From: a virus
Lineage: Duplodnaviria > Heunggongvirae > Uroviricota > Caudoviricetes
Strand: one strand, 5' to 3'
IMG/VR virus record: IMGVR_UViG_2778261223_000017
Length of the DNA stretch: 14,856 nucleotides
Shown: one piece after another, positions 1 to 14,856 of the stretch
How positions within the stretch are numbered: the stretch's first letter is position 1
How the letters are laid out: the number at the start of each line of letters is the position of its first letter
Translations under genes and position numbers: made by a program
The notes under the pieces: generated by a model
The model's database searches: none
The model's input: the letters and a program-made list of their open reading frames with translations, nothing else
What the model was told of the DNA's origin: nothing

Positions 1-77
1 ATGCTTCCATCGGAAACGATGATCTGGCAGCCTGAGTTCACAGATAAAACACTCTCCAGGAAACCCGGGGCGGTTCA
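1..77 (+). mobile_element. Partial IS3-family insertion sequence, right end (terminal inverted repeat about 41-77)
   Basis: Bases 41-77 (cagataaaacactctccaggaaacccggggcggttca) are an imperfect inverted copy of 14780-14816; the terminal 13 nt and a CTCCAGGA core match exactly. The TG...CA termini are typical of IS3-family elements. A frame-3 ORF fragment ends at 33-35, as expected for a transposase C-terminus just inside the repeat. The exact IS name was not determined. Confidence 0.6.
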
Positions 78-142
78 GGAACGTTACCTGAGCAAGCTGA
101 AAAAATGTTTATGGAGTATGTGAAGAAAGGTTCTTAATTTAC

Positions 143-168
143 AACAAAGGCGGTTATCCCGCCTTTTA
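143..168. terminator. Stem-loop (aaaggcgg / ccgccttt) with flanking T/A runs, likely terminator downstream of the 171-920 gene
   Basis: Perfect 8-bp inverted repeat with a 5-nt loop seen directly, located just past the stop of the minus-strand gene. Confidence 0.5.
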
Positions 169-170
169 TA

Positions 171-920
171 TTACTTGTCCTTTGATGTCGATTGAGACTC
201 ATATATTGTCTCTACGTCATCTATTAGTTTATTAATACCCCACAATCCAGTGTCTTTATAAAAATCACTTTCTTCAATTGCTTTTAATAAATCGGCAAAA
301 TCTTCTTGCGTGGAAATTCTTTTCTTTTTTGCTTTATATATATCGACAATTACTTTTATGCCGTGATACAGATTCACTCTGGCACTCTCAATCTCTCTCT
401 TCTTCTCTTCAATTGCAGACAATAATTTATATTGATCTTCTGTTTGCTTTTCTAGACTTAAAAGCTTGCTCTCTTTTTGCTTCAAGTTGATCTGCAAATC
501 TTTTATTCTTGCCCTCTCTTCTAAATCAAACTCATAGTCAATGTATCTAATTCTTGCATAGTTCCTGCCTGTTGCTTTTGATATACACATTGTTATATAA
601 GGCATTACCACTGACGCAGTGGTTCCATATATAAATGGCATAACAAAATGAGCCACAAACGGAGATACAATGATGGGGCCAACATAAGGAAAGTGATATT
701 TCTCACCAACCCATACTATAGACAATGTTGTATATATATCGTACTTTGATCTAAATAATATAATAATATCCTGCCAGTTAACGACAAAAAAAGAAACCAC
801 AACATATGCAAACAATTTATTAAATAACTTGTCTCTTATGGCTTCTTCGATTGTGTTCCTGACTGTGACATTTTCATCTTTATTTTCTAATGATGAATCT
901 TTGCTCATATAAAAATTCAA
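171..920 (-). CDS. Hypothetical membrane protein: hydrophobic N-terminal half (two to three predicted TM segments), charged coiled-coil-like C-terminal half
   Basis: Long ORF (249 aa) in a visibly AT-rich segment with Lys/Ile/Tyr-rich codon usage unlike its neighbours. Hydrophobic stretches LFAYVVVSFFVV and IIVSPFVAHFVMPFIYGTTASVVMPYI; C-terminal KE-rich heptad-like region. No recognisable catalytic motif. A weak AGAAGG sits upstream of the ATG at 920; an alternative start is at 908. Confidence 0.65.
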   Translation of the reverse strand: MNFYMSKDSSLENKDENVTVRNTIEEAIRDKLFNKLFAYVVVSFFVVNWQDIIILFRSKYDIYTTLSIVWVGEKYHFPYVGPIIVSPFVAHFVMPFIYGTTASVVMPYITMCISKATGRNYARIRYIDYEFDLEERARIKDLQINLKQKESKLLSLEKQTEDQYKLLSAIEEKKREIESARVNLYHGIKVIVDIYKAKKKRISTQEDFADLLKAIEESDFYKDTGLWGINKLIDDVETIYESQSTSKDK

Positions 921-945
921 ACCTTCTTATCTTTATTTTTGGTGA

Positions 946-964
946 AGGCGGTCTTCCAGACCGC
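946..964. other. Intercistronic perfect hairpin (ggcggtct-tcc-agaccgcc) between the HTH gene stop and the membrane-protein gene start
   Basis: 8-bp perfect inverted repeat with 3-nt loop seen directly. It is not followed by a U-run on either strand, so it is more likely an RNA processing or stability element than a terminator. Confidence 0.35.
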
Positions 965-969
965 CAAAC

Positions 970-1329
970 TCAAACACCAACCAGGCTTTCAAGAGGAATG
1001 CCAAACTGGGAATGTAAACGACGAATCATAGGTAACGTCAAATTTCGCGTGCCATTAAGCACTTCGTAAACACGGTTTGACTTACCAATCGCCGGTTCCA
1101 GATCCTTCACGGTCAGCCCTTGCTGTTCCATGCGGAACTTAATGGCCTCAATAGGTGATGGTGGTTGAATTGGGTAATGTTTCTTCTCGTACTCCTCAAT
1201 GAGAAGACTCATAACCTCAAAGAAATCAGCTTCCGGAGTATTCATTTCCGGTTCGTTATCGAACATCGGTTCGACCGCACGCAGTGCGGCCTCATAATCT
1301 TGTTCTGTACGGATAGGTTTAATGTTCAT
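970..1329 (-). CDS. HTH-XRE family protein resembling HigA-type antitoxins (C-terminal helix-turn-helix)
   Basis: 119-aa ORF. The C-terminal segment LTVKDLEPAIGKSNRVYEVLNGTRNLTLPMIRRLHSQFGIPLESL resembles the HTH region of E. coli HigA-family antitoxins as I recall them; the N-terminal IKPIRTEQDYEAAL is typical of that family. Not verified by search. Confidence 0.6.
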   Translation of the reverse strand: MNIKPIRTEQDYEAALRAVEPMFDNEPEMNTPEADFFEVMSLLIEEYEKKHYPIQPPSPIEAIKFRMEQQGLTVKDLEPAIGKSNRVYEVLNGTRNLTLPMIRRLHSQFGIPLESLVGV

Positions 1330-1341
1330 TAATTACAAAGG

Positions 1342-1370
1342 AAAGCCCACTTGCTAAGTGGGCTTTTTGT
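1342..1370. terminator. Hairpin aaagcccactt / aagtgggcttt followed by TTTTT; bidirectional-looking terminator between higA and the downstream HTH gene
   Basis: Inverted repeat and T-run seen directly. Confidence 0.5.
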
Positions 1371-1385
1371 ATGTGTTTTACTATA

Positions 1386-1724
1386 TCAGGCTGCTTTTTT
1401 ATTCAGGTTACGCTGAGAAATAAATTTTTCAGCAGTATTGATACGACTTAACTCTTCCTGAACGCGCATATCATTTTCGACTTCCCACAGATCTACTGCG
1501 GTCTGAAGATTAATCCAAAAATCTACAGAAGTATCGAATGCTTTTGCCAGGCGATATGCCATATCCATCGTTAGCTTACGATTATTATTAACAAGAGCAC
1601 TTACGGTGTTACGATGAACATGAAGTATTTCTGCTAACTCGTTGATCTTCAGCTCTAACGGCTCCAGGTATTCGTACAGCAGGATATCACCTACGGTCGT
1701 CGGTTTTCTGGTTGCCTGTTTCAT
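1386..1724 (-). CDS. higA: HigA antitoxin (HTH, VapI/COG3093-like)
   Basis: 112-aa ORF directly downstream of the higB-like gene on the same strand. The motif TVGDILLYEYLEPLELKINELAEILHVHRNTVSALVNNNRKLTMDMAYRLAKAFDTSVDFWINLQ matches the HigA/VapI antidote HTH family by recall. Confidence 0.8.
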   Translation of the reverse strand: MKQATRKPTTVGDILLYEYLEPLELKINELAEILHVHRNTVSALVNNNRKLTMDMAYRLAKAFDTSVDFWINLQTAVDLWEVENDMRVQEELSRINTAEKFISQRNLNKKAA

Positions 1725-1794
1725 TTTTTGCCCTTACTAGCGTGCGTATTAAGTGGACTCTGGTCAGAACCCGGTCCGTAACCGGGTATCTGTT

Positions 1795-2097
1795 TTAGTA
1801 TTTGTGAGGGTCGAGATACAAGTCCTCGGCCTTTCCGTTAACCCACTTAAAAATTAACCTATATTGCTTATTCACCCTTACTGATGAATAGCCATTTAGC
1901 TTCCCTGACAGTTCCTCATACCGATTACCTGGTGGTGATCTTAAATCCTTACAGGTAGTTGCGGCATTGATAATGTCCAACTTCCGTGACAATGTCATAT
2001 GAATATCAGGAGGTATCTTTCTATGTGGTGTTGAAAATTCAAAAAAATCATCAAGCCACGCATCCCTGAAATCCTTTATGTTAATTTTTTTGGTCAT
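1795..2097 (-). CDS. higB: HigB toxin (plasmid maintenance killer protein, RelE/ParE superfamily)
   Basis: 100-aa ORF. KDFRDAW...LRSPPGNRYEELSGKLNGYSSVRVNKQYRLIFKWVNGKAEDLYLDPHKY matches the HigB/killer-protein family pattern by recall. Toxin-first order with higA downstream. Confidence 0.8.
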   Translation of the reverse strand: MTKKINIKDFRDAWLDDFFEFSTPHRKIPPDIHMTLSRKLDIINAATTCKDLRSPPGNRYEELSGKLNGYSSVRVNKQYRLIFKWVNGKAEDLYLDPHKY

Positions 2098-2142
2098 TAG
2101 TCATTTGATCCTCCGTGATGATTACCGAATGCCATAACTATA

Positions 2143-2179
2143 GCGCACCGTTGCACTGTGCGCAAGTGCATTTTATGAA
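2143..2179. promoter_or_regulatory. Divergent promoter/operator region between higB and the four-gene operon
   Basis: Inverted repeat GCGCAC-N8-GTGCGC overlapping a TTGCAC / 17 bp / TATGAA promoter-like arrangement on the + strand. All read by eye; function inferred. Confidence 0.3.
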
Positions 2180-2259
2180 TTCCCCCTCCTTCATCCAAAA
2201 TCACAATCTCCCGAAAATCTTCCTTTCGATACCTGACAGATCGACCTTTGAGGATGCTT

Positions 2260-3051
2260 ATGGGCCGTTTTGACGAATGGTTTGCTGACGATGCAAACCT
2301 GGCAAGTAAGGAGTCAGAACATGACAGCACGCAGAGAGAAACGCCAGCGCCGATTGAAGTGAATGCAGGAGGCGCGCCGGAACATGGCAATACCGGTTCG
2401 GATTCATTCAGCATTCTGGAAGAGCAACCCGCCGCCAAAGCTGATAGCCATGATAATTTTGCTGATAGCAACGGTGGCCTTACTCCGGATGCTGGCGAAT
2501 CAGATATAGCCATACTTCCACCTTCCCTGGCTGGCAGAGAATCAACTCCACAGCTAAAAGCACGCTATAACGGGCATAAAGCCTTTAACGACCAAATCCG
2601 CGCAGACTGGATGCTGATTATTGAATCCAGCCCAGACGCGTTTCAGGCTCTCTTATATCGACCAGATGTTGGCACATATGGGGTAGTCAGCGACGAAACA
2701 GGAGAAGAGTCATTCACTGAACTGGATAACAACCAACGCGAACTGACTTACCAGGAACCTGAAATCGTTTATGTGCTGGATAACCCTGACGGGCGTGACT
2801 CTTTCCATGCGATTGACGCAGACGGTGAGCAGGATGGCTTAACCGATGATGTTCTGATTCTGCGTATTGCAGCAAATAACGTCCCCGTCGGCTCAATTCT
2901 TGAATGGAATGAAGAGATGGTAAACGGCGTAGCGCGCCGCTGGTGGTACGTGCACCGTATTTTTAGCTACGGCACACAGCATGTTGGTTCGCTTTACTAC
3001 TGCATACCTGCCAGGAATTTTGATACGACTCAAAACGGAGTGATCGAATGA
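2260..3051 (+). CDS. Hypothetical protein, first gene of four-gene operon; acidic low-complexity N-terminal region and structured C-terminal domain
   Basis: ORF with GAGGA Shine-Dalgarno about 5 nt before the ATG at 2260 (the track's 2248 start is a TTG). N-terminal about 110 aa are D/E/S/G/P-rich; the C-terminus contains RRWWYVHRIFSYGTQHVGSLYYCIPARNFD. The stop overlaps the next start (ATGA at 3048-3051). No family recognised. Confidence 0.6.
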   Translation: MGRFDEWFADDANLASKESEHDSTQRETPAPIEVNAGGAPEHGNTGSDSFSILEEQPAAKADSHDNFADSNGGLTPDAGESDIAILPPSLAGRESTPQLKARYNGHKAFNDQIRADWMLIIESSPDAFQALLYRPDVGTYGVVSDETGEESFTELDNNQRELTYQEPEIVYVLDNPDGRDSFHAIDADGEQDGLTDDVLILRIAANNVPVGSILEWNEEMVNGVARRWWYVHRIFSYGTQHVGSLYYCIPARNFDTTQNGVIE

Positions 3052-3815
3052 CTTCAAATAAAACCCTCCTGGCGCGAACAGGTGAATGGCAAACCTCACG
3101 CACAGGAAAATTCCAGACCACGGGCTTTGAAAACGTGGATAACGCGTTTGCGACGCTAATCAGCAACATTTTTTCTGATATCTTACTGGTGGCCCCCGCG
3201 CCGGAAGAAAAACGCTTTGCGTCATTCCTGAATCGTCCACCAGCAGAGCGTGTTTATGTGGCCCGTTTCGACAATGCGATCGAGTTTCTTAAAGCAGTTC
3301 GTCGCGCAAATGCCGGGCAAGGGAGAAAACCTGAAAACCAGAACATTAACCGGGATGCTCTCCCCCTGGTCAATATCTCACGCACTATGGATATCAATTA
3401 TATCAACGATGATCAGCAGATTGACCGCAAAAAAGTAGCCAGTTTTTGCGAACCGGATACCGGAATGCCTTTAGCAGAACTGGAATACACCCAGGCTATT
3501 CTGACGTATGACGTTACGTTAATGGCAACTGATAAAGCGACCATGAGTCTGATGTGTAATTCGCTGGGCGCACGGCTTCGCCTGATGACAGGTACACAAT
3601 TTGAAGCAACCACTCACCTTGTTCGTGTCCCGGTCCCGCTGATTTGCTCGATACAGGATGCCAAAGAAGTCGGCTTTACGGATGTTTCAGCACCAATTGG
3701 AGAAGAGCGTATTTATGCCACACAAGCGCCGATAAGTGTGATTGCAGACGTGATCACAGCATGGGAGTTGGACGCAAAACGTATTATTACCGAAACCTCG
3801 ATATCTATGGGGTGA
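3048..3815 (+). CDS. Hypothetical protein, second gene of four-gene operon
   Basis: 255-aa ORF translationally coupled to the upstream gene (ATGA overlap). No family recognised. Confidence 0.6.
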   Translation: MTSNKTLLARTGEWQTSRTGKFQTTGFENVDNAFATLISNIFSDILLVAPAPEEKRFASFLNRPPAERVYVARFDNAIEFLKAVRRANAGQGRKPENQNINRDALPLVNISRTMDINYINDDQQIDRKKVASFCEPDTGMPLAELEYTQAILTYDVTLMATDKATMSLMCNSLGARLRLMTGTQFEATTHLVRVPVPLICSIQDAKEVGFTDVSAPIGEERIYATQAPISVIADVITAWELDAKRIITETSISMG

Positions 3816-3818
3816 TAA

Positions 3819-4799
3819 GTGGCCCAGGAGTTACAACAATATTTTCTACAGTCAGTGCTCATTAACGATAACAAAGTGCCACGAGACTGGATTTTTACCG
3901 CAGTATATGTAGAAAAAACCAGCCTCAAAGCCCCTTTGCTAAAACTGGAAATTCATGACGCTACCGGCACCGTAATTGATGACTGGAAAGCCAAATACGG
4001 TGCATCGCTGGTGGCTGAAATGGGCGATCCAAACGGTAATGCAGGCACTTTTAAAACAGATTTCTTTGTTACGTCTGCAATGCTGGCTGGTGATGTTGTT
4101 ACCGTTATTGCTGTCAGTGAAGACGTGCGCAGGTTTAAGATCCCCTCCCCGCGCACAAATTTACATACCAACAAAACACCAGACGCTATATTCAAGGCAT
4201 ATTCCGGCAAGCTTAAAATTACCAGCAGCGTGCTAAAACGCGCAGTTACATATCATCTGAATGCCGGTGACAAACCGTCAAAAATGCTTTCGGAGATAGC
4301 GCGAGACAAAGGTGCATTATGTTGGGTATGCCGGGGGGAATTTAACTTTTACACCCTGGCTGATCTGATGAAGCAAACGCCATCATTTACCTACGAGGGG
4401 AATAACCCTAAAGCAGAATACACTTTGTCCAAAATGCGCCTACTCCAACAGGAACATGCGACAACAGCAAAGAATCAATATCGTTTTGTTGGGTATTCCA
4501 TGACCGATGGCTACGTCGAATATGGCGATAGCTCACTCCCAGTGCGTTATATATCCGACTCTGATATGGAAACTCTTCGCAATATGCAGCTGTCTCTCGT
4601 CCCCAAAATGGATATAGAAGTCGCAGGCAATCCTGATATAAAACCGGGGATGGTGATAGAGATTATCGTATACCGCTATGACCAGGAAAACCGCATTGAT
4701 GAATCAATGCCCCGTAAGCTGATAGTAAAAAATGTTGCGCACTTTGAAGACCGCGTAGGCTACACAACACGAATGATATTGGGAGTGCCGAACAAATGA
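3819..4799 (+). CDS. Putative phage baseplate hub protein (late control gene D / gp27-like)
   Basis: 326-aa ORF with a GTG start 4 nt after the previous stop. Segments KMLSEIARDKGALCWVCRGEFNF and GNPDIKPGMVIEIIVYRYDQENRIDESMPRKLIVKNVAHFEDRVGYTTRMIL resemble conserved regions of P2 gpD-family hub proteins by recall. Immediately followed by, and coupled to, a spike-like gene. Confidence 0.5.
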   Translation: MAQELQQYFLQSVLINDNKVPRDWIFTAVYVEKTSLKAPLLKLEIHDATGTVIDDWKAKYGASLVAEMGDPNGNAGTFKTDFFVTSAMLAGDVVTVIAVSEDVRRFKIPSPRTNLHTNKTPDAIFKAYSGKLKITSSVLKRAVTYHLNAGDKPSKMLSEIARDKGALCWVCRGEFNFYTLADLMKQTPSFTYEGNNPKAEYTLSKMRLLQQEHATTAKNQYRFVGYSMTDGYVEYGDSSLPVRYISDSDMETLRNMQLSLVPKMDIEVAGNPDIKPGMVIEIIVYRYDQENRIDESMPRKLIVKNVAHFEDRVGYTTRMILGVPNK

Positions 4800-5449
4800 A
4801 GCGTAGAGCGCAAATTGTTGGAACTGTGCACCCGGCAGGGCTTATGCGTGCTCAAGTCCGTGTTTTACCTGACTGGAATGGCGTTCCTGATGACGATCTA
4901 CCCTGGGCGGAATACCTGTTACCCATCGGAAACGCTTTTGTACCCACAGTCAAAGGTGACCTGGTCTGGGTAGAGTTTCCTTATTTAGATGTTAACGGTC
5001 GAATAGACACCAGACGCCCAATGATAGTTGGTGCCGCTCAGGATGCACCGGGAGGAATTCCAAACGTTGCACCAGAAGCATCTGGCAAAGGCAACGGCTG
5101 GACGCCGCCGGAAGTAGATGGAGCACCTCCCCGCCCCCAAATCTCAGCAACGAAAGACTTCGTTATTCACCGCAACAATATTCTTGAAGTACGAACTGCT
5201 GGTGGCGGCTATGAAATTGCCAATACGGCAGCAGGCGCAAGGATTGGCATGAATGAGTCCGGGCAGATATATATCATTGGTCCGGCTGATGTAATCGTGA
5301 ATGCAGGAGGGAGTGTTAACGTCAAATCAGCCAACAACATCAATGTTAATGGGGAAAATATAGCTGTCACCGCTAACGGAGACATAGCTTTCAAGGCAGG
5401 AGGAACCTTTCAGGCCACTGCTGGCAACTTCGATTTCAAGAAAGGATAG
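4796..5449 (+). CDS. Putative baseplate central spike (gpV / gp5-like OB-fold N-terminus with C-terminal beta-helix repeats)
   Basis: 217-aa ORF. N-terminal IVGTVHPAGLMRAQVRVLPDW...PWAEYLLP...VKGDLVWVEF fits the gp5/VgrG/gpV OB-fold signature. The C-terminus is Gly/Asn/Val/Ala-rich with short periodic repeats (VIVNAGGSVNVKSANNINVNGENIAVTANGDIAFKAGG) typical of a spike beta-helix. ATGA coupling at 4796-4799. Confidence 0.65.
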   Translation: MKRRAQIVGTVHPAGLMRAQVRVLPDWNGVPDDDLPWAEYLLPIGNAFVPTVKGDLVWVEFPYLDVNGRIDTRRPMIVGAAQDAPGGIPNVAPEASGKGNGWTPPEVDGAPPRPQISATKDFVIHRNNILEVRTAGGGYEIANTAAGARIGMNESGQIYIIGPADVIVNAGGSVNVKSANNINVNGENIAVTANGDIAFKAGGTFQATAGNFDFKKG

Positions 5450-5457
5450 AAAATGCA

Positions 5458-5502
5458 CCCATTTGTGTTAGATAATTAATATGTATTTTCTAACACAAAT
5501 GG
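5458..5502. repeat. Perfect 14-bp inverted repeat (ccatttgtgttaga ... tctaacacaaatgg) with 17-bp AT-rich spacer
   Basis: Seen directly between the spike gene stop (5449) and the rdgC-like start (5509). Candidate operator or terminator-like hairpin. Confidence 0.5.
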
Positions 5503-5508
5503 TGATAC

Positions 5509-6414
5509 ATGAGATCAGTCGCTTTCAAAAATATCTTCATCTATCGTCTTTCACGCGAAGTTAGCTGGGATACTGCAGAAGTAAATGCAGCCCTTAGCAA
5601 GTTTGTGTTTACCCCATGCGGTTCTCAGGATATGGCTAAAGCTGGTTGGACCTCCGTTCTTGGTGACAACCTCACCCATGAATACCAGGGTTTTCTTCTG
5701 ATACAGCATAAACGAGAGGAAAAAATCCTACCTTCTCAAGTGCTCAAAGAAGAGTTACAGAAAAAAATCCTGACACTTGAAGAAGAGCAAGACAGAAAGC
5801 TGAAGAAGACCGAAAAAGATTCGCTGAAGGATGAAGTGCTTCACTCTCTTCTTCCTCGTGCTTTCACGAGAAAATCACTCGCCAAAATCCTGATCGACCG
5901 CAGAAACCATCTGGTATTCGTTGAGGCAAGCAGCGCCAAAAAGGCAGAGGACCAGCTGGCTTTATTGCGAAAATCGCTCGGCAGCCTGCCTGTCATTCCA
6001 TTCACACCACGCGAACCGCTGGAAATTACAATGACCGAGTGGTTTAAAAACGGCTTCCCTGCCGGATTTACAGCAGGTGAAGACGCCAAATTAAAGGGTC
6101 TGCTCGATAATGGTGGTGCCGTTCGCTGCAACAAAGTTGATCTACAGTCCGACGAGATTATGTCTCACATTGAGGCGGGGAAAGTAGCTACGACCGTTGC
6201 AATTAACTGGATGGACCGCGCGTCGTTCAGAGTCAACGATGATATGAGTATCAAAGCCCTGACATTCTGTGATGATCTCTATGACCAGAACGACGATATC
6301 GACCGGGAGGATGTAGCACAACGATTTGATGCTGATTTCGTGCTCTTTACGGGCGAATTATCTGCACTGTTTAACGCGCTGGTGGAGGCCATTGGCGGTG
6401 AAGCAGAACGATAA
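5509..6414 (+). CDS. rdgC: RdgC-like recombination-associated DNA-binding protein (divergent homolog)
   Basis: 301-aa ORF. N-terminus [10 protein letters not shown]...[14 protein letters not shown] and central [23 protein letters not shown]...[26 protein letters not shown] closely parallel E. coli RdgC (about 303 aa) as I recall it, though clearly diverged elsewhere. Confidence 0.8.
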
Positions 6415-6430
6415 TAACCGACCGCTTGTT

Positions 6431-7078
6431 GTGAGTCTTTGTGATTTTACGGGGGCAATGGTTGCCCCCTGGCTGGAATACGGTGTCGATGCCGCTATCG
6501 TCGATCCACAGCACTTATCGACCAGTGACGAGCGGATGCAATCAGGTGCCGTTCTGACGCGTATTAGTGCGATCATCGATAGCGATGAAGTATACGCTTT
6601 TCTCCGTAAGAATTTGCAGCGCATCGTGTTTCTGGCCGGGTTCCCACCGTGTACTGACCTGGCTGTTTCCGGCGCGCGCTGGTTTTCGGACAAGGCTAAT
6701 AAAGATCCGGTTTTCCAGTTCAAAGCAATGCAGGTTGTCTGGCAGTGTTATGACATTGCAAAGATGATCGGTTGTCCGTACATGATTGAAAATCCGGTCA
6801 GCAAAATATCGACATTCTGGCGTAAGCCAGATCACATCTTTCACCCTTACTTCTTCACTGCATATTGTCAGGAAGATAACTACACCAAAAAAACATGCCT
6901 CTGGAGCGGCCAGGGCTTTGTCATGCCTGATGCCCTAATGGACGAATCATTAGGCAAGCCAGATAACAGAATCCATGCCGCGCCACCAGGGCCTGACAGG
7001 GCTAATTTTCGAAGTGCTACTCCACATGGATTCGCAAAGGCAGTTTTCGAAGCGAATAAGGGGGTGCTCTATGAGTAA
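6431..7078 (+). CDS. Putative short DNA (cytosine-5) methyltransferase-like protein
   Basis: Contains a motif-I-like LCDFTG, a motif-IV-like GFPPCTDLAVSG (Pro-Cys) and a motif-VI-like IENP. The start is uncertain: the ORF is open back to 6326 and overlaps the rdgC-like gene; GTG 6431 was chosen because it lies just after the rdgC stop and precedes motif I. About 215 aa is short for a C5-methyltransferase, so the call is tentative. Confidence 0.45.
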   Translation: MSLCDFTGAMVAPWLEYGVDAAIVDPQHLSTSDERMQSGAVLTRISAIIDSDEVYAFLRKNLQRIVFLAGFPPCTDLAVSGARWFSDKANKDPVFQFKAMQVVWQCYDIAKMIGCPYMIENPVSKISTFWRKPDHIFHPYFFTAYCQEDNYTKKTCLWSGQGFVMPDALMDESLGKPDNRIHAAPPGPDRANFRSATPHGFAKAVFEANKGVLYE

Positions 7079-7976
7079 ATCTATAGCAAGCATAGCCATA
7101 GAAAAACAGGATACGATGGCTGAAATTAGCTATATGCGCACCATTCGGACTCCGGATGAATATGAGCGTCCGATATTCAAATGGGTAGGTGGTAAATTCT
7201 CAGAATTGCCTACAGTGCTTGAGCATCTACCACACGGTAAGCGGTTAATAGAACCATTCGTTGGTGGCGGTTCCGTATTTACGAATGCAGGATTTCGCCA
7301 CAACCTGCTTAATGATATTAACGGTGACCTGATTAACTTCTATCAGACATTGCAGCGAGAAGGACATTCGCTCGTCACGCTGTCATATAGTTTTTTCCAA
7401 AATTACAACAACGCTGACGCTTACCTCGAAGTGCGTGAGGCATTTAACAGAGGAAAGTATGACCAGCTACATCATGCTGCCGCCTTTTTGTACCTTAATC
7501 GGCACTGTTTTAATGGCGTAACGCGGTACAACCAAAATGGCGAGTTCAACGTGGGGTATGGCAAATACAAAGCACCCTACTTCCCACACGCAGAGATGGA
7601 GGCATTTTTGGCTGATGACGTACTCAAAAACACGTCCTTTGTATCAGGTGACTTTGCTGGCGTCATCGAGGCGGCTGGTGAAGGCGATGTGATTTTTTGC
7701 GATCCGCCGTATGAACCGCTGCCGGATACAGAAGGGTTTACCAGTTATTCAGGAAATAGCTTCCGTTTCGACGAACAGAAACGGCTGGTATCTCTATTGG
7801 TGGAAGCCCACCAGCGCGGCGCTAAGGTAGTGATAACAAATAGTGGTGCGCCAAACATCCGTGAACTATATGAAGGAAACGGGTTTAAAGTACATCATAT
7901 GGCAGCCAGACGGTCGGTGTCCTGCAAGGCGTCAACACGTGTAGTTGCTAACGATATAATTGCAATAATGAAGTAA
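7071..7976 (+). CDS. dam: Dam-like DNA adenine (N6) methyltransferase
   Basis: FKWVGGK, EPFVGGGSVF, LYLNRHCFNGVTRYNQNGEFNVGYGKYKAPYFP and the catalytic DPPY motif parallel E. coli Dam. AAGGGGG Shine-Dalgarno before the ATG at 7071; the start overlaps the preceding gene's stop by 8 nt. Confidence 0.85.
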   Translation: MSKSIASIAIEKQDTMAEISYMRTIRTPDEYERPIFKWVGGKFSELPTVLEHLPHGKRLIEPFVGGGSVFTNAGFRHNLLNDINGDLINFYQTLQREGHSLVTLSYSFFQNYNNADAYLEVREAFNRGKYDQLHHAAAFLYLNRHCFNGVTRYNQNGEFNVGYGKYKAPYFPHAEMEAFLADDVLKNTSFVSGDFAGVIEAAGEGDVIFCDPPYEPLPDTEGFTSYSGNSFRFDEQKRLVSLLVEAHQRGAKVVITNSGAPNIRELYEGNGFKVHHMAARRSVSCKASTRVVANDIIAIMK

Positions 7977-8008
7977 AAAACGCCGCAGTAGCGGCGTTTA
8001 CTTTTTTA
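7977..8008. terminator. Bidirectional rho-independent terminator (acgccgc-agta-gcggcgt with A-run before and T-run after)
   Basis: Seen directly between the convergent dam-like and glnS genes. Confidence 0.7.
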
Positions 8009-8024
8009 TGTGGCGAAATACCTA

Positions 8025-9686
8025 TTAACCTAACTTCGCCCAGGTATCACGCAGCCCAACGGTGCGGTTAAATACCGGTTTTTCCGCCGTAGAATGGCGG
8101 CTGTCGAGGCAGAAATAACCTTCACGCTCAAACTGGAATGCTTTACCCGCTACCGCGTCTTTCAGAGACGGTTCAGCAAAGCCCTGTTTGATCACCAGCG
8201 ATTCCGGGTTAATCACCGACAGGAAATCATCCGCAGCACCTGGGTTCGGCACGCTGAACAGACGGTCATACAAACGGATTTCAACCGGCAGCGCATGTGC
8301 CGCGCTCACCCAGTGAATAACACCTTTGACTTTACGACCATCTGCCGGATCTTTGCTTAAGGTATCGGCGTCATAAGTACAGAAGATGGTGGTGATATTA
8401 CCTTCGGCATCTTTCTCGACGCGTTCTGCCTTAATCACATAAGCATTACGCAGACGCACTTCTTTACCCAGCACCAGACGTTTGTACTGCTTGTTAGCTT
8501 CTTCGCGGAAATCGGCGCGATCAATCCAAATCTCACCGCTAAACGGCACCTGACGGCTCCCCATTTCCGGTTTGTTCGGATGGTTCGGCATGGTGACCAT
8601 TTCGCCTTCGCCCTGATAGTTTTCGATAACCAGTTTCACCGGATCGATAACCGCCATTGCGCGCGGCGCATTTTCGTTGAGATCTTCACGGATGCAGGAT
8701 TCCAGCGACGCCATCTCAATGGTGTTGTCCTGCTTGGTCACGCCGATGCGTTTGCAGAACTCACGAATAGAAGCAGCAGTGTAACCACGACGACGCAGAC
8801 CGGAAATGGTCGGCATACGCGGGTCATCCCAGCCTTCAACGTGCTTGTCGGTCACCAGCAGGTTCAGCTTACGCTTGGACATCACAGTGTATTCCAGATT
8901 CAGGCGCGAGAATTCGTACTGGCGCGGGTGAACAGGAATGGTGATGTTGTCCAGTACCCAGTCATACAGACGACGGTTGTCCTGGAACTCAAGCGTACAC
9001 AGAGAGTGCGTAATACCTTCCAGCGCATCGCTGATGCAGTGGGTGAAGTCGTACATCGGGTAGATGCACCACTTGTTGCCAGTCTGGTGGTGTTCAGCAA
9101 ACTTAATGCGGTACAGCACCGGGTCGCGCATCACGATAAACGGCGAAGCCATATCGATTTTCGCACGCAGGCAGGCTTTACCTTCTTCAAAACCACCGGC
9201 ACGCATTTTTTCGAACAGCGCCAGGTTCTCTTCAACGCTGCGATCGCGGTACGGGCTATTTTTACCCGGCTGCGTCAGGGTGCCGCGGTATTCGCGGATC
9301 TGTTCCGGCGTCAGTTCGTCAACATACGCCAGGCCTTTGTTGATCAGTTCAACAGCATAGGCATGGAGTTTGTCAAAATAATCGGAGGAGTAACGGATGT
9401 TGCCAGACCAGTGAAAACCTAACCATTCAACGTCGTTTTTAATCGACTCGACGTACTCGATATCTTCTTTTACCGGGTTAGTGTCGTCGAAACGCAGGTT
9501 GCACTGGCCTTTATAGTCCTGGGCGATCCCGAAGTTCAGGCAGATAGATTTCGCATGGCCAATATGCAGATAGCCATTCGGCTCCGGCGGGAAACGGGTG
9601 TGTACTGTGGTGTGCTTACCACTGGCCAGATCTTCATCGATGATCTGACGAATAAAGTTAGTCGGGCGGGCTTCTGCCTCACTCAT
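8025..9686 (-). CDS. glnS: Glutaminyl-tRNA synthetase
   Basis: 553-aa ORF. N-terminus [47 protein letters not shown] (class I HIGH motif) and a VMSKR-type KMSKS motif; near-identical to E. coli GlnS as recalled. Confidence 0.97.
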
Positions 9687-9875
9687 TGTGGATTCCTCAA
9701 AGCGTAAACAACGTATAACAGCGTATGATCTTATAAGCCGAATAGGCTGACAACCACTAGTTGATTAGAAATTGCTTTCTATCGTTATTTCAATAATGAG
9801 CTTTTTCATGAAGCCCACTTTTGCGCATAAGTAAATTAATGACAAATGGTACACAATTGGAACCAAAAAGGATGT

Positions 9876-9913
9876 AAAGGTGCACCAAATTAGTGGTGTA
9901 TTGGTGCACCTTT
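9876..9913. promoter_or_regulatory. Perfect 13-bp palindrome arms (aaaggtgcaccaa ... ttggtgcaccttt) with 12-bp spacer in the glnS-upstream / partition-downstream intergenic region
   Basis: Seen directly. Could be an operator, a centromere-like site or a terminator hairpin for the upstream partition operon. Confidence 0.4.
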
Positions 9914-9954
9914 GGTTCAAGACTTTTTAAGTTCTAAAACCAACCTGAAAGACT

Positions 9955-10242
9955 TTATTTTGCTTCCTCAGACTCCGCTAACATGAGGATAGCATGGCGG
10001 ATCATATTCAATTTGCTGCGATTATGCTTTTTACTTAACGCATCAAGTACTTGGTACTCGTATTCATTGAAACCAACACGAATAGATTTAAAATCACGTG
10101 GAGCGTCCTTATCGAGCACTTTGTTGTCTTCTGGTTGCTCACCCGGCACCAAATCAGCCTTACTGGCAAAATCCTCAATTCGGCGTTCAAGATCAGGGTC
10201 TTTTACTTCGGGGGCTTTTACCGATTTACGAGGCTTAATCAC
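9955..10242 (-). CDS. Small partition-operon DNA-binding protein (ParG/ParB-like, probable ribbon-helix-helix)
   Basis: 95-aa basic ORF directly downstream of and overlapping (8 nt) the ParA-like gene. Disordered N-terminus, then C-terminal KSIRVGFNEYEYQVLDALSKKHNRSKLNMIRHAILMLAE consistent with a beta-strand plus helices RHH fold. Confidence 0.55.
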   Translation of the reverse strand: MIKPRKSVKAPEVKDPDLERRIEDFASKADLVPGEQPEDNKVLDKDAPRDFKSIRVGFNEYEYQVLDALSKKHNRSKLNMIRHAILMLAESEEAK

Positions 10243-10876
10243 TTAATAACTCCTTAACCAACATCTGGATTTCACCTTTAGCTTTCCCGTTGTCCATCTC
10301 AACAACGCCCTTCCCTTCAGCCATGCAATCGCGGTAAACCTTACGATCACGAATGATGGTTTTCAGCAACTTCAGTTGCGGATATTCAGCCAGGTACTCT
10401 TTGGCCTCATTGGTTTCATTCACAACCGGATTGGATGGGGCCATTGTTAAGACTGCGAACGCCTTGATGCTAGGATTAGGCATCAGGTCCAAAGCCTCTT
10501 CAAACACTTCAACAAAGTGTGCCAGCGTGTCTAAATCTGGTTGAGATGGTCTGAATGGGACCAACACAATATCTGCAGCGGTTATGCCTGTACGCATCTC
10601 TTTGCTATCGCGCCCGGCTGTATCAACAACTACAAATTCATAACGCTTATCCAGATCGAGAAGTGTTTCTCGAATATTACCAAACTTCTGGACACAATGA
10701 ATTACAGGAGAAACCTCTGCCGTGTTACGGTCAGCTGCCCAGCGGGCAGCTGTTCCTTGCTTGTCTGCATCTAGTAACACTACATCCTTATTTTCGCGGG
10801 CAAGCTCCGCACAGATGTTTACGCTTGTGGTTGATTTTCCACAGCCACCTTTTTGGCTGACTACCAATATAATCAT
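10235..10876 (-). CDS. parA: ParA/ParF-type partition ATPase (deviant Walker A)
   Basis: VVSQKGGCGKSTTSVNICAEL Walker A box and VVVDTAGRD Walker B-like motif. Start chosen at ATG 10876 (GAGGA Shine-Dalgarno 5 nt upstream) rather than the track's TTG at 10906. Confidence 0.85.
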   Translation of the reverse strand: MIILVVSQKGGCGKSTTSVNICAELARENKDVVLLDADKQGTAARWAADRNTAEVSPVIHCVQKFGNIRETLLDLDKRYEFVVVDTAGRDSKEMRTGITAADIVLVPFRPSQPDLDTLAHFVEVFEEALDLMPNPSIKAFAVLTMAPSNPVVNETNEAKEYLAEYPQLKLLKTIIRDRKVYRDCMAEGKGVVEMDNGKAKGEIQMLVKELLSD

Positions 10877-11114
10877 ATCCGTTCCTCGGTGTGATTTTGG
10901 TATCAAAACGGTTCCAGATAAGAGCCTTTTTGATGCGGGACAGGCTCTATAATGGAGTCATGAATGTTTGGCAAAGTATAACATCAATCAGACCAAATAC
11001 ACCTTATATTGCATCCTATTTAACACGAAAGCAGCCCCAAATTGGAACCAGATACAAAATTGCACCATAACAGCACCTAACTGGTGCCAGATTAACACTA
11101 ATTAGACACCATTA

Positions 11115-11146
11115 AGGCATAAAAAAGGCTGCAATTTGCAGCCTTA
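11115..11146 (-). terminator. Rho-independent terminator after parR (aaggctgca-loop-tgcagcctt followed by a U-run on the minus strand)
   Basis: Seen directly. Confidence 0.65.
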
Positions 11147-11163
11147 AACCAGCACATCTTCTG

Positions 11164-11502
11164 TCAATCAGGTAGAGAGTCAGCCAGATTGCGCGCCGAC
11201 GCGCTTTTGGCAACAAATTGCTCCTTCACTGGCTCAATGGAGGCAGGGCGCTCCTCAACCGCAGCTGGTAGTTCCAAGAAGGATGCCAGCATTTTTCGGA
11301 TCAGCTCCGGGTTATTGTCTTCGGTCAGCAGGGAAGCCAGTAATCCTGGAAGCCTGCTATCGACTTCTCCCAGCGCAAGCCCTGCCAACAATGCAGTTCT
11401 TGCCATATCGCTATGTTTTTTTATCTTCTCGCTCGCCGCCTTTTCATTGGCATAAGCCTCTGGGCGAAGATAAATCATCACTTTCTTACGTTCCTGAGAC
11501 AT
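11164..11502 (-). CDS. parR: ParR/StbB-like centromere-binding protein
   Basis: Small ORF immediately downstream of parM. ARTALLAGLALG resembles the R1 ParR motif NRAALTAGLALY by recall. Start at ATG 11502 (ACGAGG 7 nt upstream); 11508 is an alternative. Confidence 0.65.
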   Translation of the reverse strand: MSQERKKVMIYLRPEAYANEKAASEKIKKHSDMARTALLAGLALGEVDSRLPGLLASLLTEDNNPELIRKMLASFLELPAAVEERPASIEPVKEQFVAKSASARNLADSLPD

Positions 11503-11514
11503 GGACATACCTCG

Positions 11515-12471
11515 TTAACCGATTGCTTTCAGGCCATGAACAAGAGCAAGTTGCGGGTCATCCGCCACGAAGAAACGGTCATCACGAATATTAACTTGCT
11601 CGCGAATTGCATCTGCCACCAGCGGTGCGCCACCACCGATCACCATGACATGCGTATATCCTTTAAAGTCGCCAATCACATCAAGAACGCGGGTACGCAG
11701 ACGGTCAATGCTTGCGGCAATGGCCTTTTTCACATCACCAATCGCTAATGGGTCATTGATATTGTCGTTCAGATAATCTTCATCGTGGCGGTTAATAATG
11801 AGCTGATCAACATTGTAATTTGACGTTTCGGTATTGGCCCTTGCAAGTGCTTGCCTTACTTCCCTGGTGACCAGTGATACACCAAGATTCGAATCGCCAA
11901 AAACACGGGAAACTGCCGTCATTTGTCCAGCGACCATTGAAACATCAAGGGTAGTTCCACCCAAATCGACGATAAGAACAGAGTGGGCAGGGTTCAGATT
12001 GTCGCACAGGCTAATTCCCGCCGGGATAGACTCCGGGCGTACCGTAACTTTCTTAATAGTGAATACATTGCCTTTATTCAGCGTGACGGGGCGCATAAGA
12101 CTGGCTTTCTTGCGCTCGATGTTATCGAGATTGTATTGCGCGTCGTCGTCGTAAAACTCTGCCAGAGGCAGCGTGACCACAATTTCTACTTCCTGCGGCT
12201 CAATACCGCTTGTCAGCAGGGCATGGTGAACAGCCAGGACGTTAAGCGGGCTGTATTGCCATTCCACATTATTCGTCGGCAGAACATCTGGCGATATCAA
12301 GTCGTATGAATACTTTTCGTCGTCAATGACATAGTTAAACGGCTTGCCCGCACCAAATGTTGCTGACCATCCGCGCTTAAAGCTGTTAGGGCTGATGTGA
12401 GTGCGAGTTTCCCCGTCGTGCTCCCACAGCATTTTGATATTGGTTGAACCATCATCGATAAAAATGCGCAT
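11515..12471 (-). CDS. parM: ParM/StbA actin-like partition ATPase
   Basis: MRIFIDDGSTNIKM..., HISPNSFKRGW, AVHHALLTSG, NIERKKA, ESIPAG, LIVDLGGTTLD, GDSNLGVSLVT and GYTHVMVIGGGA parallel R1 ParM motif by motif. Start at ATG 12471 (GGAG upstream); the track start 12495 is 8 codons longer. Confidence 0.9.
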   Translation of the reverse strand: MRIFIDDGSTNIKMLWEHDGETRTHISPNSFKRGWSATFGAGKPFNYVIDDEKYSYDLISPDVLPTNNVEWQYSPLNVLAVHHALLTSGIEPQEVEIVVTLPLAEFYDDDAQYNLDNIERKKASLMRPVTLNKGNVFTIKKVTVRPESIPAGISLCDNLNPAHSVLIVDLGGTTLDVSMVAGQMTAVSRVFGDSNLGVSLVTREVRQALARANTETSNYNVDQLIINRHDEDYLNDNINDPLAIGDVKKAIAASIDRLRTRVLDVIGDFKGYTHVMVIGGGAPLVADAIREQVNIRDDRFFVADDPQLALVHGLKAIG

Positions 12472-12495
12472 CTTCTTGCTCCACTTCTGAGACAC

Positions 12496-12660
12496 ATTTG
12501 AGAATCAAAATGTAATTTTAAAAGAGAAGCCCCCAAAAATCCACACCAAACGAGATAAAAAAGGGCGCTTGTTGAGTTTATTTTGAGAATATCTTAATCA
12601 CCCACCGAATGATGGTCTGATAGTGAGATTTATTTGAGAGCGAATTGAGAATACAAAAAT
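12496..12660. repeat. Candidate parC-like centromere: repeated TTGAGA(A/G)-containing elements upstream of parM
   Basis: TTGAGAAT at about 12499 and 12582, TTGAGAG at about 12634, TTGAGAAT at about 12649; two longer related copies gagtttattttgagaat and gagatttatttgagagc. Seen directly; the role is inferred from position upstream of parMR. Confidence 0.4.
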
Positions 12661-12737
12661 ATTCCGAAATTTAACTCTCCGTTTGAATGACGAAATAACA
12701 AAGTGATGACAATAGAAGGATAACCAGGAGGTGAAGA

Positions 12738-13022
12738 ATGAGCGCAATAGCCACCAGCGACACCCTTTGTTCTGGTCACGGAGGATTTCCGCCGCGACTG
12801 GTAGCTGAAACCGTTCCCTGGTTCACCGTTAACGGTAAGCCAGTTGTTGTAGATGGTGCCATGTTTCCCAGTCACACTGACGGTAACAGTGCACATCCAG
12901 GGGCAGCTGTATCGACGCGAGCATGGTTTTCGATAGGTGGAAAGGGAGTTGTCTGTGTAGGCGATCTGCTTTCTTGTGGTTCTGTTATCGCCAACGGCGA
13001 GGATATTTTTCAGGTTGCATAA
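12738..13022 (+). CDS. PAAR-like domain protein (spike-tip protein)
   Basis: 94-aa ORF with strong AGGAGGTG Shine-Dalgarno. Repeated motif pattern FTVNGKPVVVDGAMF and SIGGKGVVCVGDLLSCGSVIANG with conserved Cys/His/Gly positions typical of PAAR proteins. Confidence 0.7.
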   Translation: MSAIATSDTLCSGHGGFPPRLVAETVPWFTVNGKPVVVDGAMFPSHTDGNSAHPGAAVSTRAWFSIGGKGVVCVGDLLSCGSVIANGEDIFQVA

Positions 13023-13828
13023 TGCTTGATTCAATAGGTGAAGTTAAAGCCTTCAAAATTCTGTCAGATGCCGGTATCTCTACACCAGAATCTATAACCA
13101 TAAGCCGAGCAGCTTCTGTAAAAGCCTCATCGCTCGCCAGCGCCATACAGGGAATAGTTCACGCCGATAAAACCTATCCTGATTCTGTTTCGGCCTGGAC
13201 TACTCAATTGCTTGGCTTTTCTGAACAGCTCAATGAGGCCAGCAAAGCGTCTTCATTACTGGCTGATTCTCTTTCCCCATACACCAAGCCATCAGAGCTG
13301 TTACAGATGAAGATTGGCTGGGAATGCTACGCAAAAGGTAACGAGCTGACCCCCATACCTGCTTTCGCCCTTGTTGAGGGAATGGGGAATGTTTCCATTC
13401 CGCAATCTCTAACGGACGCATTGACGGCGCTAAAACTTGATGCTCTGAAAACCGCCATGAACGCCATTAACGCAAAAATTGAAGCTGCCGGAAGTGCTGG
13501 TGGTGGTGATAGCAATGGTGGACAGGGTGGTGCTGGGGGCGCTCAGGCTCCAGTCATTACTCAGGATGAAATTGATGCTTTACGGGAAGCAGTGACAGCC
13601 GCCGAAGCTTTACTCTCCGAAATTAACTCAGCAAGTGAGAGTGTCGTAGCCCTTACAGGTCGCATTAAAACGTCAACCACTCAGGCAACCAAAGGTTTAG
13701 AGAACGCTGTCGCCATCACGTTAACTGGCTCTCTACTGGATGATGCAGTAATGAGTCCGGCAATCAGTTTAATCATGCCACAAGGCGTTATCGATGCGCT
13801 CCAAAAGAACACCAAAAAGGAACCATAG
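13022..13828 (+). CDS. Hypothetical protein coupled to the PAAR gene; Ala/Ser/Thr/Leu-rich with an internal Gly-rich linker
   Basis: Start ATG overlaps the PAAR stop (TAATG at 13020-13024). Predicted helical, no TM segment, linker AGSAGGGDSNGGQGGAGGAQAP. No family recognised. Confidence 0.6.
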   Translation: MLDSIGEVKAFKILSDAGISTPESITISRAASVKASSLASAIQGIVHADKTYPDSVSAWTTQLLGFSEQLNEASKASSLLADSLSPYTKPSELLQMKIGWECYAKGNELTPIPAFALVEGMGNVSIPQSLTDALTALKLDALKTAMNAINAKIEAAGSAGGGDSNGGQGGAGGAQAPVITQDEIDALREAVTAAEALLSEINSASESVVALTGRIKTSTTQATKGLENAVAITLTGSLLDDAVMSPAISLIMPQGVIDALQKNTKKEP

Positions 13829-13883
13829 CAACACCACTTAGGCACACAAAAGGATGTAATTTGGTACATGTTTAACACCGAAA

Positions 13884-14357
13884 ATGAACCTGAAGAGGAT
13901 GGTTTTGAAAAAGATAATTTTGATTGTAATTGCGCTTTTAGCCATTTCTGGAATTTACCGAACAACGACGGCAGTTATCGAACACATCAGGTATGTCCGA
14001 TCGCTTGAAGACTCAAAATCACAACTGGAAAGCACGAACAACACGCTTTCTACCGCATTACAGTTAAGTGAGAACGCTCGCTCAGCCATGCTGACCGAAA
14101 ACGAAAGAATTAAAGCACTGGAAAAGGAGTACCAGCGCAAAACAGCAGAACTGAATGCCAACCTAATCAAACAACGAGAGGAAAGCCAGAATGAAATCAC
14201 TCGCCTTGAAAATGCGTTACGCCGTGCTGGGATTAACGATGTGCGTGTGCCTGATGACGTTATCAGGATGCAGCGGGAACGGGCAAAAGCCATCAACCAG
14301 CGTGCCAGTGAAAATTACCGTAGAAGCCACCAGCAAGCCGCAGGCAAATCTGATTGA
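13884..14357 (+). CDS. Rz-like inner-membrane spanin (i-spanin): N-terminal TM anchor plus periplasmic coiled coil
   Basis: N-terminal hydrophobic segment KKIILIVIALLAISGIY followed by a charged heptad-rich region. NALRRAGINDVRV resembles the Rz C-terminal region of lambda by recall. An overlapping +1-frame lipoprotein gene is embedded at its 3' end. Confidence 0.6.
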   Translation: MNLKRMVLKKIILIVIALLAISGIYRTTTAVIEHIRYVRSLEDSKSQLESTNNTLSTALQLSENARSAMLTENERIKALEKEYQRKTAELNANLIKQREESQNEITRLENALRRAGINDVRVPDDVIRMQRERAKAINQRASENYRRSHQQAAGKSD

Positions 14358-14523
14358 TTACTCCCCTTGTTTAGTGCCAGAAGACACGCCAGTGCTGTTA
14401 AACAAGTATCCGACATACGCTGAACAGTTATTCAGCACGATCGACGAATGCAACCAACGAAACGCACTGAATAACCAAAGAAACAGGGAGATTTGGGAAG
14501 GGAAGGGGGATCAAGGCTCCTGA
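14191..14523 (+). CDS. Rz1-like outer-membrane lipoprotein spanin (o-spanin), overlapping the i-spanin gene in another frame
   Basis: GAGGAAAG Shine-Dalgarno before the ATG at 14191. Signal peptide with lipobox LSGC (MKSLALKMRYAVLGLTMCVCLMTLSGC), Pro-containing mature region, and two further Cys residues. The gene begins inside the Rz-like gene and extends past it, the overlapped spanin architecture. Confidence 0.55.
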   Translation: MKSLALKMRYAVLGLTMCVCLMTLSGCSGNGQKPSTSVPVKITVEATSKPQANLIDYSPCLVPEDTPVLLNKYPTYAEQLFSTIDECNQRNALNNQRNREIWEGKGDQGS

Positions 14524-14779
14524 AGCCAGATGTCCTGGCTGTCAGCTTCTTCGAAACCGTGACAGACGTTAAAGTCACTCAAACGATACTGACGCTGACG
14601 GCCCCTATTTCGCTCATGCCAATGCATATATCCACCAGCAAATGCCAGCGGACAATCGCTATAGTCTATGTAACCAATACCATTCCCCAAACGTGCTTCG
14701 CGCGCACCAGCTTTCCAGGACAGTAGAAAAGAGTCACGATCCGCCAGCATAACAACAAAATCGTCCGGATCTCCGATAC

Positions 14780-14856
14780 TGAACCGCCCCGGAAATCCTG
14801 GAGACTAAACTCCCTGAGAAAGAGGTAAACAGGATGACTAAAAATACTCGTTTTTC
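14780..14856 (+). mobile_element. Left end of an IS3-family insertion sequence (terminal inverted repeat TGAACCGCCCCGG...) including the start of the transposase orfA
   Basis: Terminal repeat is inverted relative to 41-77. An ATG at 14834 preceded by GAGG opens a frame reading MTKNTRF..., which matches the N-terminus of an IS3-family OrfA as I recall it. Truncated by the window end. Confidence 0.65.
14834..14856 (+). CDS. IS3-family transposase OrfA, N-terminal fragment (partial, runs off window)
   Basis: ATG with Shine-Dalgarno inside the IS left end; only 7 codons visible. Confidence 0.5.

Follow-up and report, generated by a model that had tools for sequence, protein, structure and literature searches.

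The window analysed here is a stretch of 14,856 nucleotides that constitutes a whole short-read assembly contig, NLUO01000078.1 (assembly GCA_002233385.1); the 10,346 nt of this contig that were compared (L014) agree exactly with the window in reverse complement. Both of its ends are pieces of an insertion sequence (IS), and the 14,702 bp between them (78-14779), referred to below as the cargo, hold phage structural genes and plasmid maintenance genes. The features are listed below; assignments were made from Pfam and PHROG matches and from comparison with the annotation of phage D6.

1-77, plus strand: right end of IS629/IS1203; orfB finishes here with its stop codon at 39-41, and the right inverted repeat closes with CA at 77
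78-137, plus strand: 3' remnant of a tail protein gene, homologue of P1 gene 25 and D6 orf74 (phrog_1722), 19 codons plus stop
78-80: GGA, putative 3-bp target-site duplication of the left IS (inner copy)
171-908, minus strand: hypothetical protein similar to D6 orf73 (phrog_8191), in a patch that is variable among D6-like plasmids
970-1329, minus strand: HTH protein, first of the 970-2097 module (annotation; Pfam matches of the module: HTH_3 and HigB-like_toxin at 4e-35)
1386-1724, minus strand: HigA antitoxin, same module (annotation)
1795-2097, minus strand: HigB/RelE-like toxin, same module (annotation)
2260-5449, plus strand: tail and baseplate module, homologues of P1 genes 7, 24, 6 and 5 (D6 orf69-66; tail and baseplate PHROG families at 1e-46 to 1e-144; D6 annotation)
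5509-6414, plus strand: RdgC (Pfam RdgC, 2.5e-103)
6398-7078, plus strand: D6 orf64-like protein
7071-7976, plus strand: Dam-type N6-adenine methyltransferase (Pfam MethyltransfD12, 2.5e-56)
8025-9686, minus strand: plasmid-borne glutaminyl-tRNA synthetase (D6 orf62; Pfam tRNA-synt_1c, 6e-130)
9955-10242, minus strand: small ORF of the maintenance module
10235-10876, minus strand: ParA-like ATPase (Pfam, annotation)
11164-11502, minus strand: StbB/ParR (Pfam, annotation)
11515-12471, minus strand: StbA/ParM (Pfam, annotation)
12738-14357, plus strand: PAAR-motif protein (P1 upfC-like), upfB-like protein and a 152-aa protein similar to Rz-like spanins
14511-14779, minus strand: 3' part of a D6 orf53 homologue (phrog_8101), cut by the right IS; 79-aa remnant ORF from 14750 to 14511
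14776-14779: ATAC, putative 4-bp target-site duplication of the right IS (inner copy)
14780-14856, plus strand: left end of IS629/IS1203; the left inverted repeat starts with TG, and orfA begins with its ATG at 14834 (MTKNTRF)

Rfam and tRNA scans of the window gave no matches.

The two terminal pieces belong to IS629/IS1203, an IS3-family element of 1310 bp that is abundant in E. coli O157:H7, other STEC and Shigella. Positions 1-77 are the last 77 nt of this element and positions 14780-14856 are its first 77 nt. In blastn comparisons each piece was 100% identical (77/77 identities at each of the two ends, E about 1e-40, far above chance) to an end of IS copies of 1310 bp, the left piece to their right end and the right piece to their left end. 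Both pieces match the same two copies, one on the chromosome of E. coli O157:H7 PV15-279 (L005, 1601-2910) and one on plasmid pE2855-2 (L006, 4001-5310), each annotated as 'IS3-like element IS1203 family transposase, programmed frameshift'. The left piece corresponds to L005 2834-2910, L006 5234-5310 and also L003 2001-2077, and the right piece to L005 1601-1677 and L006 4001-4077. The left piece ends ...GGGGCGGTTCA and the right piece begins TGAACCGCCCC...; when the left piece is reverse complemented, 23 of its first 27 positions match the right piece, including all of the first 13, and TGAACCGCCCCGG is found at both tips. The ends therefore show the imperfect terminal inverted repeats and TG...CA tips of the IS3 family. 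In this family a programmed -1 frameshift joins orfA to orfB and yields a DDE transposase; of that coding sequence, the window shows 8 codons at the start of orfA (from 14834) and 12 at the end of orfB (3-38).

Both ends are of a single IS species and lie in direct orientation, with exact boundaries at 77 and 14780. This bears out the first-pass annotation, which had read IS3-family ends at these two positions and had named an origin in unrelated elements as the observation that would overturn its reading; an origin in two different IS3-family elements is ruled out, since the same IS copies match both pieces at 100%. The IS3-family element of pMTY12355_3 (L004) is unrelated to the IS ends of the window. 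Of each copy, 77 nt lie in the window, and each IS is presumably full length. The visible part does not differ from what is known of IS629/IS1203: the tips, the start of orfA, the end of orfB, the 3-4-bp duplications and the prophage target are all alike. Target-site duplications of 3-4 bp have been reported for IS629, and 62% of its copies in O157:H7 sit in prophages (PMC3271280). Duplications of 3 bp are visible beside the IS copies at L005 and L003.

Five D6-like plasmids of Salmonella align with the cargo as a single match of 99.9% identity. One of these, pYU39_89 of Salmonella Typhimurium ST213, has been described as a D6-like plasmid prophage (PMC6799933), and differs from the cargo by 9 substitutions and no indel. 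Phage D6 is 99.3% identical over 96% of the cargo, which corresponds to D6 orf74' through orf53' in the same order and on the same strands. The P1/D6 structural genes are colinear and are accompanied by the D6-specific stbAB partition genes and glnS, as expected for a D6-like plasmid prophage; the D6 annotation corresponds gene by gene, and the Pfam and PHROG matches agree with it. At a coverage of at least 80%, the cargo is carried by 67 complete genomes of E. coli and by 91 plasmids in PLSDB, in every case without these IS junctions. Most E. coli relatives diverge from the window in the patch 78-1147, their matches beginning at 736, 948 or 1148. The host is apparently E. coli, from the name on the protein record WP_089592004.1 described below; across the full segment, by contrast, the Salmonella plasmids have the closest backbone.

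Phage tail genes here adjoin partition, toxin-antitoxin and glnS genes, which at first sight gives the segment a mixed look, and the first-pass annotation had proposed that IS-mediated recombination assembled a mosaic. On that reading an inversion, a deletion or the resolution of a cointegrate would have joined the segment to its neighbours. Phage D6 and over 150 IS-free plasmids, however, share this gene order, and the cargo aligns without a gap, at 99.9% identity, to D6-like plasmid prophages that are IS-free. Because of this colinearity, the gene order is the native P1/D6 layout rather than a mosaic built by the IS. Recombination of this kind would moreover part matched target-site duplications, yet both of the putative pairs described below are intact, and we consider an origin by this route extremely improbable.

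In pYU39_89 both of the sites concerned are empty, whereas in the window IS629 interrupts two genes of the backbone. The left IS lies inside the tail gene (the homologue of P1 gene 25 and D6 orf74), 57 nt upstream of its stop codon; the empty site in pYU39_89, within a 398-aa tail gene, reads ATGGCA/GGAACG (the slash marks the point of insertion). The right IS lies within the homologue of D6 orf53, a 152-aa gene that it splits in two; the empty site of pYU39_89 in this gene reads CCGATAC/AGTGAAG. The ORF at about 14511-14750, which had been suspected of being truncated by the IS, is indeed the 3' 79 codons of this 152-aa gene on the minus strand. The IS ends at the left junction in CA, and the two backbone bases ahead of GGA happen to be CA as well; the boundary was read from the canonical IS tip.

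In a diverged D6-like plasmid (93% identity; Logan ERR5023166), an IS629-type left end is found 10 nt away from the right site, in the same orientation. In other D6-like plasmids, orf53 carries IS200/IS605 insertions, a nonsense mutation or a frameshift.

The proteins expected at the outer junctions, on the far side of each IS, were predicted and then looked up by exact sequence. At the left, duplication of GGA gives a truncated tail protein of 380 aa that ends in ...VMAG and terminates at a TGA of the IS left end. This sequence exists as WP_089592004.1, which is named as an E. coli protein; the product predicted for a 4-bp duplication was absent from the protein collection, products cut by a contig edge included. 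At the right, the predicted product is a 77-aa fusion of orf53 and the IS (...LHCIEPPRVSWRVFYL), which requires ATAC beside the right end of the IS. This protein was likewise found by exact look-up, and the products predicted for the 3-bp versions of the right duplication were absent from the protein collection, again including those cut by a contig edge. Both outer-junction proteins occur on exactly one contig each, and in both cases the contig is 76,131 bp long.

The exact protein matches, rather than nucleotide sequence, thus point to separate target-site duplications of GGA at the left and ATAC at the right, within the 3-4 bp reported for IS629, and they suggest that the 76,131-bp contig comes from the same isolate as the window. 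Since each IS appears to have a duplication of its own, the two would have inserted independently and in place. The 76,131-bp contig would open with the final 77 nt of IS629 and then ATACAGTGAAG..., and at its other end ...GTCATGGCAGGA would lead into the first 77 nt of IS629. The sizes add up to 75,977 + 14,702 - 7 = 90,672 bp; D6 measures 91,159 bp and pYU39_89 88,949 bp. Carriers of either junction were sought with 180-nt queries against complete E. coli genomes and with 42-mers against representative genomes and metagenome contigs; none was found among complete E. coli genomes (5,426), PLSDB plasmids (72,556), GTDB representative genomes and JGI metagenome contigs.

These observations bear on the suggestion in the first-pass annotation that the segment could be mobilised as a unit. 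A composite transposon, in which IS629, cargo and IS629 moved together into this plasmid or did so elsewhere, agrees with the presence of one IS subtype in direct orientation on both sides, and the outer ends of the two copies are formally usable together. The arrangement resembles Tn10, Tn5 and Tn9 in having two copies of one IS around a multi-gene segment. It differs from them in several respects. Insertion as a unit would give one duplication outside the whole unit, whereas here GGA and ATAC are separate and each putatively belongs to its own IS. The segment is not foreign to its replicon, being the native D6 backbone from orf53 to orf74, and the inner flanks and the predicted outer flanks are contiguous in the IS-free relatives. 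Finally, the IS-cargo-IS arrangement has no second context in the collections searched, in which neither junction was present in any E. coli genome, plasmid, representative genome or metagenome contig. IS3-family elements move by a copy-out-paste-in route via a circle of the single IS, and rarely form composite transposons. We therefore regard movement as a unit as having only the faintest likelihood. Two IS copies on a circular plasmid bracket both of its arcs alike, and so the bracketing geometry is in itself uninformative.

The contig begins with the right end of an IS and finishes with a left end, as would also be the case for a circle of about 16 kb, made up of the cargo and a single IS, that had been excised when the two IS copies recombined. 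Both ends of the contig would then connect to one IS node of an assembly graph. Such recombination would preserve all four junctions, and the 76,131-bp contig also appears to start and end in IS. That contig holds both outer junctions, an argument against the circle, although this does not separate an integrated plasmid from a pair of excised circles. A stronger argument is that the circle would be without a replicon: in these plasmids the Rep3-type initiator sits outside the cargo, some 8 kb past the right junction (L007-L009, L011). We consider it highly improbable that the contig represents an excised circle, though a minor excised or deleted form may exist.

The explanation that we favour, and in which we have high confidence, is that two separate IS629/IS1203 insertions occurred in a resident D6-like plasmid prophage, so that the segment is native backbone on a contig broken by assembly. 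The window would then be a 14.7-kb arc of a circular D6-like (P1-related) plasmid prophage of about 91 kb, most likely from E. coli. The two copies of the IS would have entered the resident plasmid separately and in the same orientation, the left one at the 3' end of the P1 gene 25 homologue with duplication of GGA, and the right one in the D6 orf53 homologue with duplication of ATAC. The assembler would have collapsed the IS copies and split the plasmid into two contigs, of 14,856 and 76,131 bp, each terminating in 77 nt of IS. The symmetric 77-nt ends are probably the result of an assembler break at a collapsed repeat, and their length would correspond to the k-mer overlap of the assembler. 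The tail and baseplate genes, higBA, rdgC, dam, glnS and stbAB/parMR are native plasmid backbone and were not delivered by the IS.

The D6-like prophage of this isolate may be defective, with a tail protein that would lack its last 18 residues and a split orf53. The direct IS repeats would allow RecA-dependent loss of the 14.7-kb arc, and the arc at risk of such a deletion holds partition and addiction genes. The finding itself is ordinary, and its importance is slight beyond housekeeping: where a contig has symmetric IS ends, the assembly may simply have broken at a collapsed repeat within a known plasmid prophage, and such ends are not to be taken as evidence for a composite transposon. It is conceivable, though unlikely, that the orf53 stretch is a preferred target of IS629 or that loss of orf53 is favoured and, as a separate matter, that the IS629 pair leads to loss of the 14.7-kb arc or to its movement as a unit.

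The clustered substitutions in glnS were considered as a possible trace of conversion by a chromosomal copy; in a partial check, at least two of the alleles proved to be common to other E. coli D6-like plasmids.

The left IS piece, at the start of the window, finishes at 77 with ...CCAGGAAACCCGGGGCGGTTCA, and the right piece, also 77 nt long, begins TGAACCGCCCCGGAAATCCTGGAG at 14780. When the left piece is reverse-complemented and compared with the right piece, 23 of the first 27 positions agree, including all of the first 13, an agreement typical of imperfect terminal inverted repeats with TG...CA tips. In local blastn searches, the 77-nt piece at the left of the window proved 100% identical to the right end of certain 1310-bp elements, and the piece at the right to the left end of those same elements. 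Two such copies are annotated as 'IS3-like element IS1203 family transposase, programmed frameshift':

L005 1601-2910: E. coli O157:H7 PV15-279 chromosome, 100% to both 77-nt ends
L006 4001-5310: plasmid pE2855-2, 100% to both 77-nt ends

The right end is also matched at 100% by a third copy (in locus L003), which has 2 mismatches to the left end, and the left-end 77-mer is present in 3,566 of 5,426 complete E. coli genomes, at a median of 3 places per genome. The first-pass annotation described IS3-family ends in direct orientation, with boundaries at 77 and 14780, and the 100% matches to IS1203-annotated copies bear this out: judged by them, the bracketing element is IS629/IS1203, with 77 nt of each copy visible in the window.

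Positions 76-14779 are matched by five Salmonella plasmids in PLSDB, in one ungapped piece at 99.9%. Comparison with pYU39_89 (L001), described as a D6-like plasmid prophage (PMC6799933), gave 9 substitutions and no indels over 14,704 aligned bases, and phage D6 (MF356679) covers 96% of the segment at 99.3% identity. The gene order of the segment corresponds one to one with D6 orf74 down to orf53:

tail gene 25 homologue
orf73-like gene
HTH gene, then higA-higB
homologues of P1 genes 7, 24, 6 and 5 (tail and baseplate)
rdgC, a small methylase-like ORF, dam
glnS (8025-9686, minus strand)
ParA-like ATPase, stbB-stbA (parR/parM)
PAAR-motif protein (12738-13022, plus strand), upfB-like protein, spanin-like protein (13899-14357, plus strand)
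orf53 (3' part, 14511-14779, minus strand)

Pfam and PHROG scans are consistent with this D6-type annotation. Tail genes interspersed with maintenance genes are, on these comparisons, the normal P1/D6 layout; the mosaic gene content suggested earlier was not borne out for the stretch between the IS ends (78-14779), given the ungapped 99.9% match and the same order in IS-free D6-like relatives.

Among D6-like plasmids, 78-1147 is a variable patch, made up of the orf73-like gene and, next to it, a 119-aa HTH gene. Most of those from E. coli match the window from 1148 only, and some from 736 or 948; the five Salmonella plasmids match the patch too (99.9% throughout), though the isolate appears to be E. 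coli. In pMTY12355_3 (L004 1174-2402), another D6-like plasmid, a different IS3-family element lies between the orf73-like gene and higA, in the place of the window's HTH gene, and IS hits on the D6-like backbone thus recur. Seven of the nine substitutions relative to pYU39_89 sit in two tight clusters in glnS (8115-8166 and 9558-9600, minus strand), a distribution that points to short patches of recombination; other E. coli D6-like plasmids share at least two of these alleles. The full-length glutaminyl-tRNA synthetase that glnS encodes and the small PAAR-motif protein, which is P1 upfC-like, are already annotated in phage D6. The 152-aa spanin-like protein is hypothetical in relatives; it has PHROG similarity to Rz-like spanins (phrog_214, 2e-15), and its C-terminal half matches phrog_17671.

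In an IS-free relative, the left insertion site lies inside the gene for a 398-aa tail protein (phrog_1722), 57 nt before the stop, and window 78-137 holds the final 19 codons and stop. The right site lies inside the gene for the 152-aa orf53 homologue (phrog_8101), and the short ORF adjoining the right IS end (14750-14511, 79 aa) is a remnant of it, as had been suspected.

The window is the whole of WGS contig NLUO01000078.1 (GCA_002233385.1; 14,856 nt), of which L014 is a part (its 10,346 nt are identical to the window's reverse complement), and the outer flanks therefore lie outside the directly readable sequence. Products across the outer junctions were predicted by assuming that each IS is a simple insertion into a D6-like backbone. 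At the left, the reading frame of the tail gene continues into the IS left end, where, given a 3-bp duplication (GGA), the tip TGA provides an immediate stop; the product is a 380-aa protein with the C-terminus ...ALVMAG. At the right, orf53 runs antisense into the IS right end, and a 4-bp duplication, ATAC, gives a 77-aa fusion protein ending ...LHCIEPPRVSWRVFYL. Both proteins were found by exact-sequence look-up among about 15 billion proteins, from which the products of alternative duplications (4 bp left, 3 bp right, including edge-cut versions) were absent. The 380-aa product is WP_089592004.1, 'phage tail protein [Escherichia coli]', on one contig of 76,131 bp, and the fusion is likewise on one contig of 76,131 bp. 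The implied backbone (76,131 - 154 + 14,702 - 7 = 90,672 bp) fits one plasmid, D6 having 91,159 bp and pYU39_89 88,949 bp. Target duplications of 3-4 bp and a location mainly in prophages are reported for IS629 (PMC3271280), and 3-bp duplications are visible at the IS copies in L005 and L003.

As read from the exact protein matches at the outer junctions, each IS has a matched duplication of its own, the hallmark of two insertions that occurred independently in place. Insertion as an IS-cargo-IS unit is ruled out by these separate duplications, together with inner and outer flanks that are contiguous in the empty site, and so is any subsequent inversion between the two IS copies, since this would have parted the duplication pairs. 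The proposal that the segment was mobilised as a unit or assembled by IS-mediated recombination is unsupported. The cargo was found elsewhere without any IS, in the same layout, in 67 complete E. coli genomes and 91 PLSDB plasmids (those covering at least 80% of the window); no junction-spanning record occurred in complete E. coli genomes, PLSDB plasmids (whose best matches run from 76 to 14779), representative genomes or JGI metagenome contigs. Two IS copies on a circular plasmid bracket each of its arcs alike, and the geometry therefore does not mark out the window's arc. The Rep3-type initiator of these plasmids lies outside the segment, about 8 kb past the right junction (L007-L009, L011), so that this arc, if excised as a circle, would be without a replicon.

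Exactly 77 nt of IS stand at each end of a deposited contig, and both predicted outer products reach their stop no more than 77 nt from the IS tips. From this we infer, as the simplest reading, that a de Bruijn assembler with k = 77 merged the copies of the multicopy IS, with k-mer overlaps remaining at contig ends. On this reading the bracketed appearance is a product of assembly fragmentation, and there is no support for a composite transposon or a mosaic assembly.

IS629, like other IS3-family elements, moves by copy-out-paste-in of a single IS. Two such events would have struck a resident D6-like plasmid prophage, which may be impaired, since the tail protein is 18 residues short at its C-terminus and orf53 is interrupted. 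Homologous recombination between the direct repeats, which are 14.7 kb apart, could delete the arc that carries higBA, stbAB and the tail genes. There is nothing unusual in the insertions or their consequences: the feature is real but ordinary, and already explained as a known IS in a known plasmid prophage.

The orf53 homologue is broken independently in other D6-like plasmids, in a sample biased towards broken genes because the loci were retrieved with the 79-aa remnant ORF as query. L015 (1-60) has an IS629-type left end 10 nt from the window's orf53 site, in the same orientation, a junction absent from the complete E. coli genomes searched. One or two IS200/IS605 elements (Y1 transposase plus TnpB) lie in the 5' part of orf53 in L007 (8069-10388) and L010/L012 (5738-10389), while orf53 carries a stop at Q40 in L013 and a frameshift in L008.
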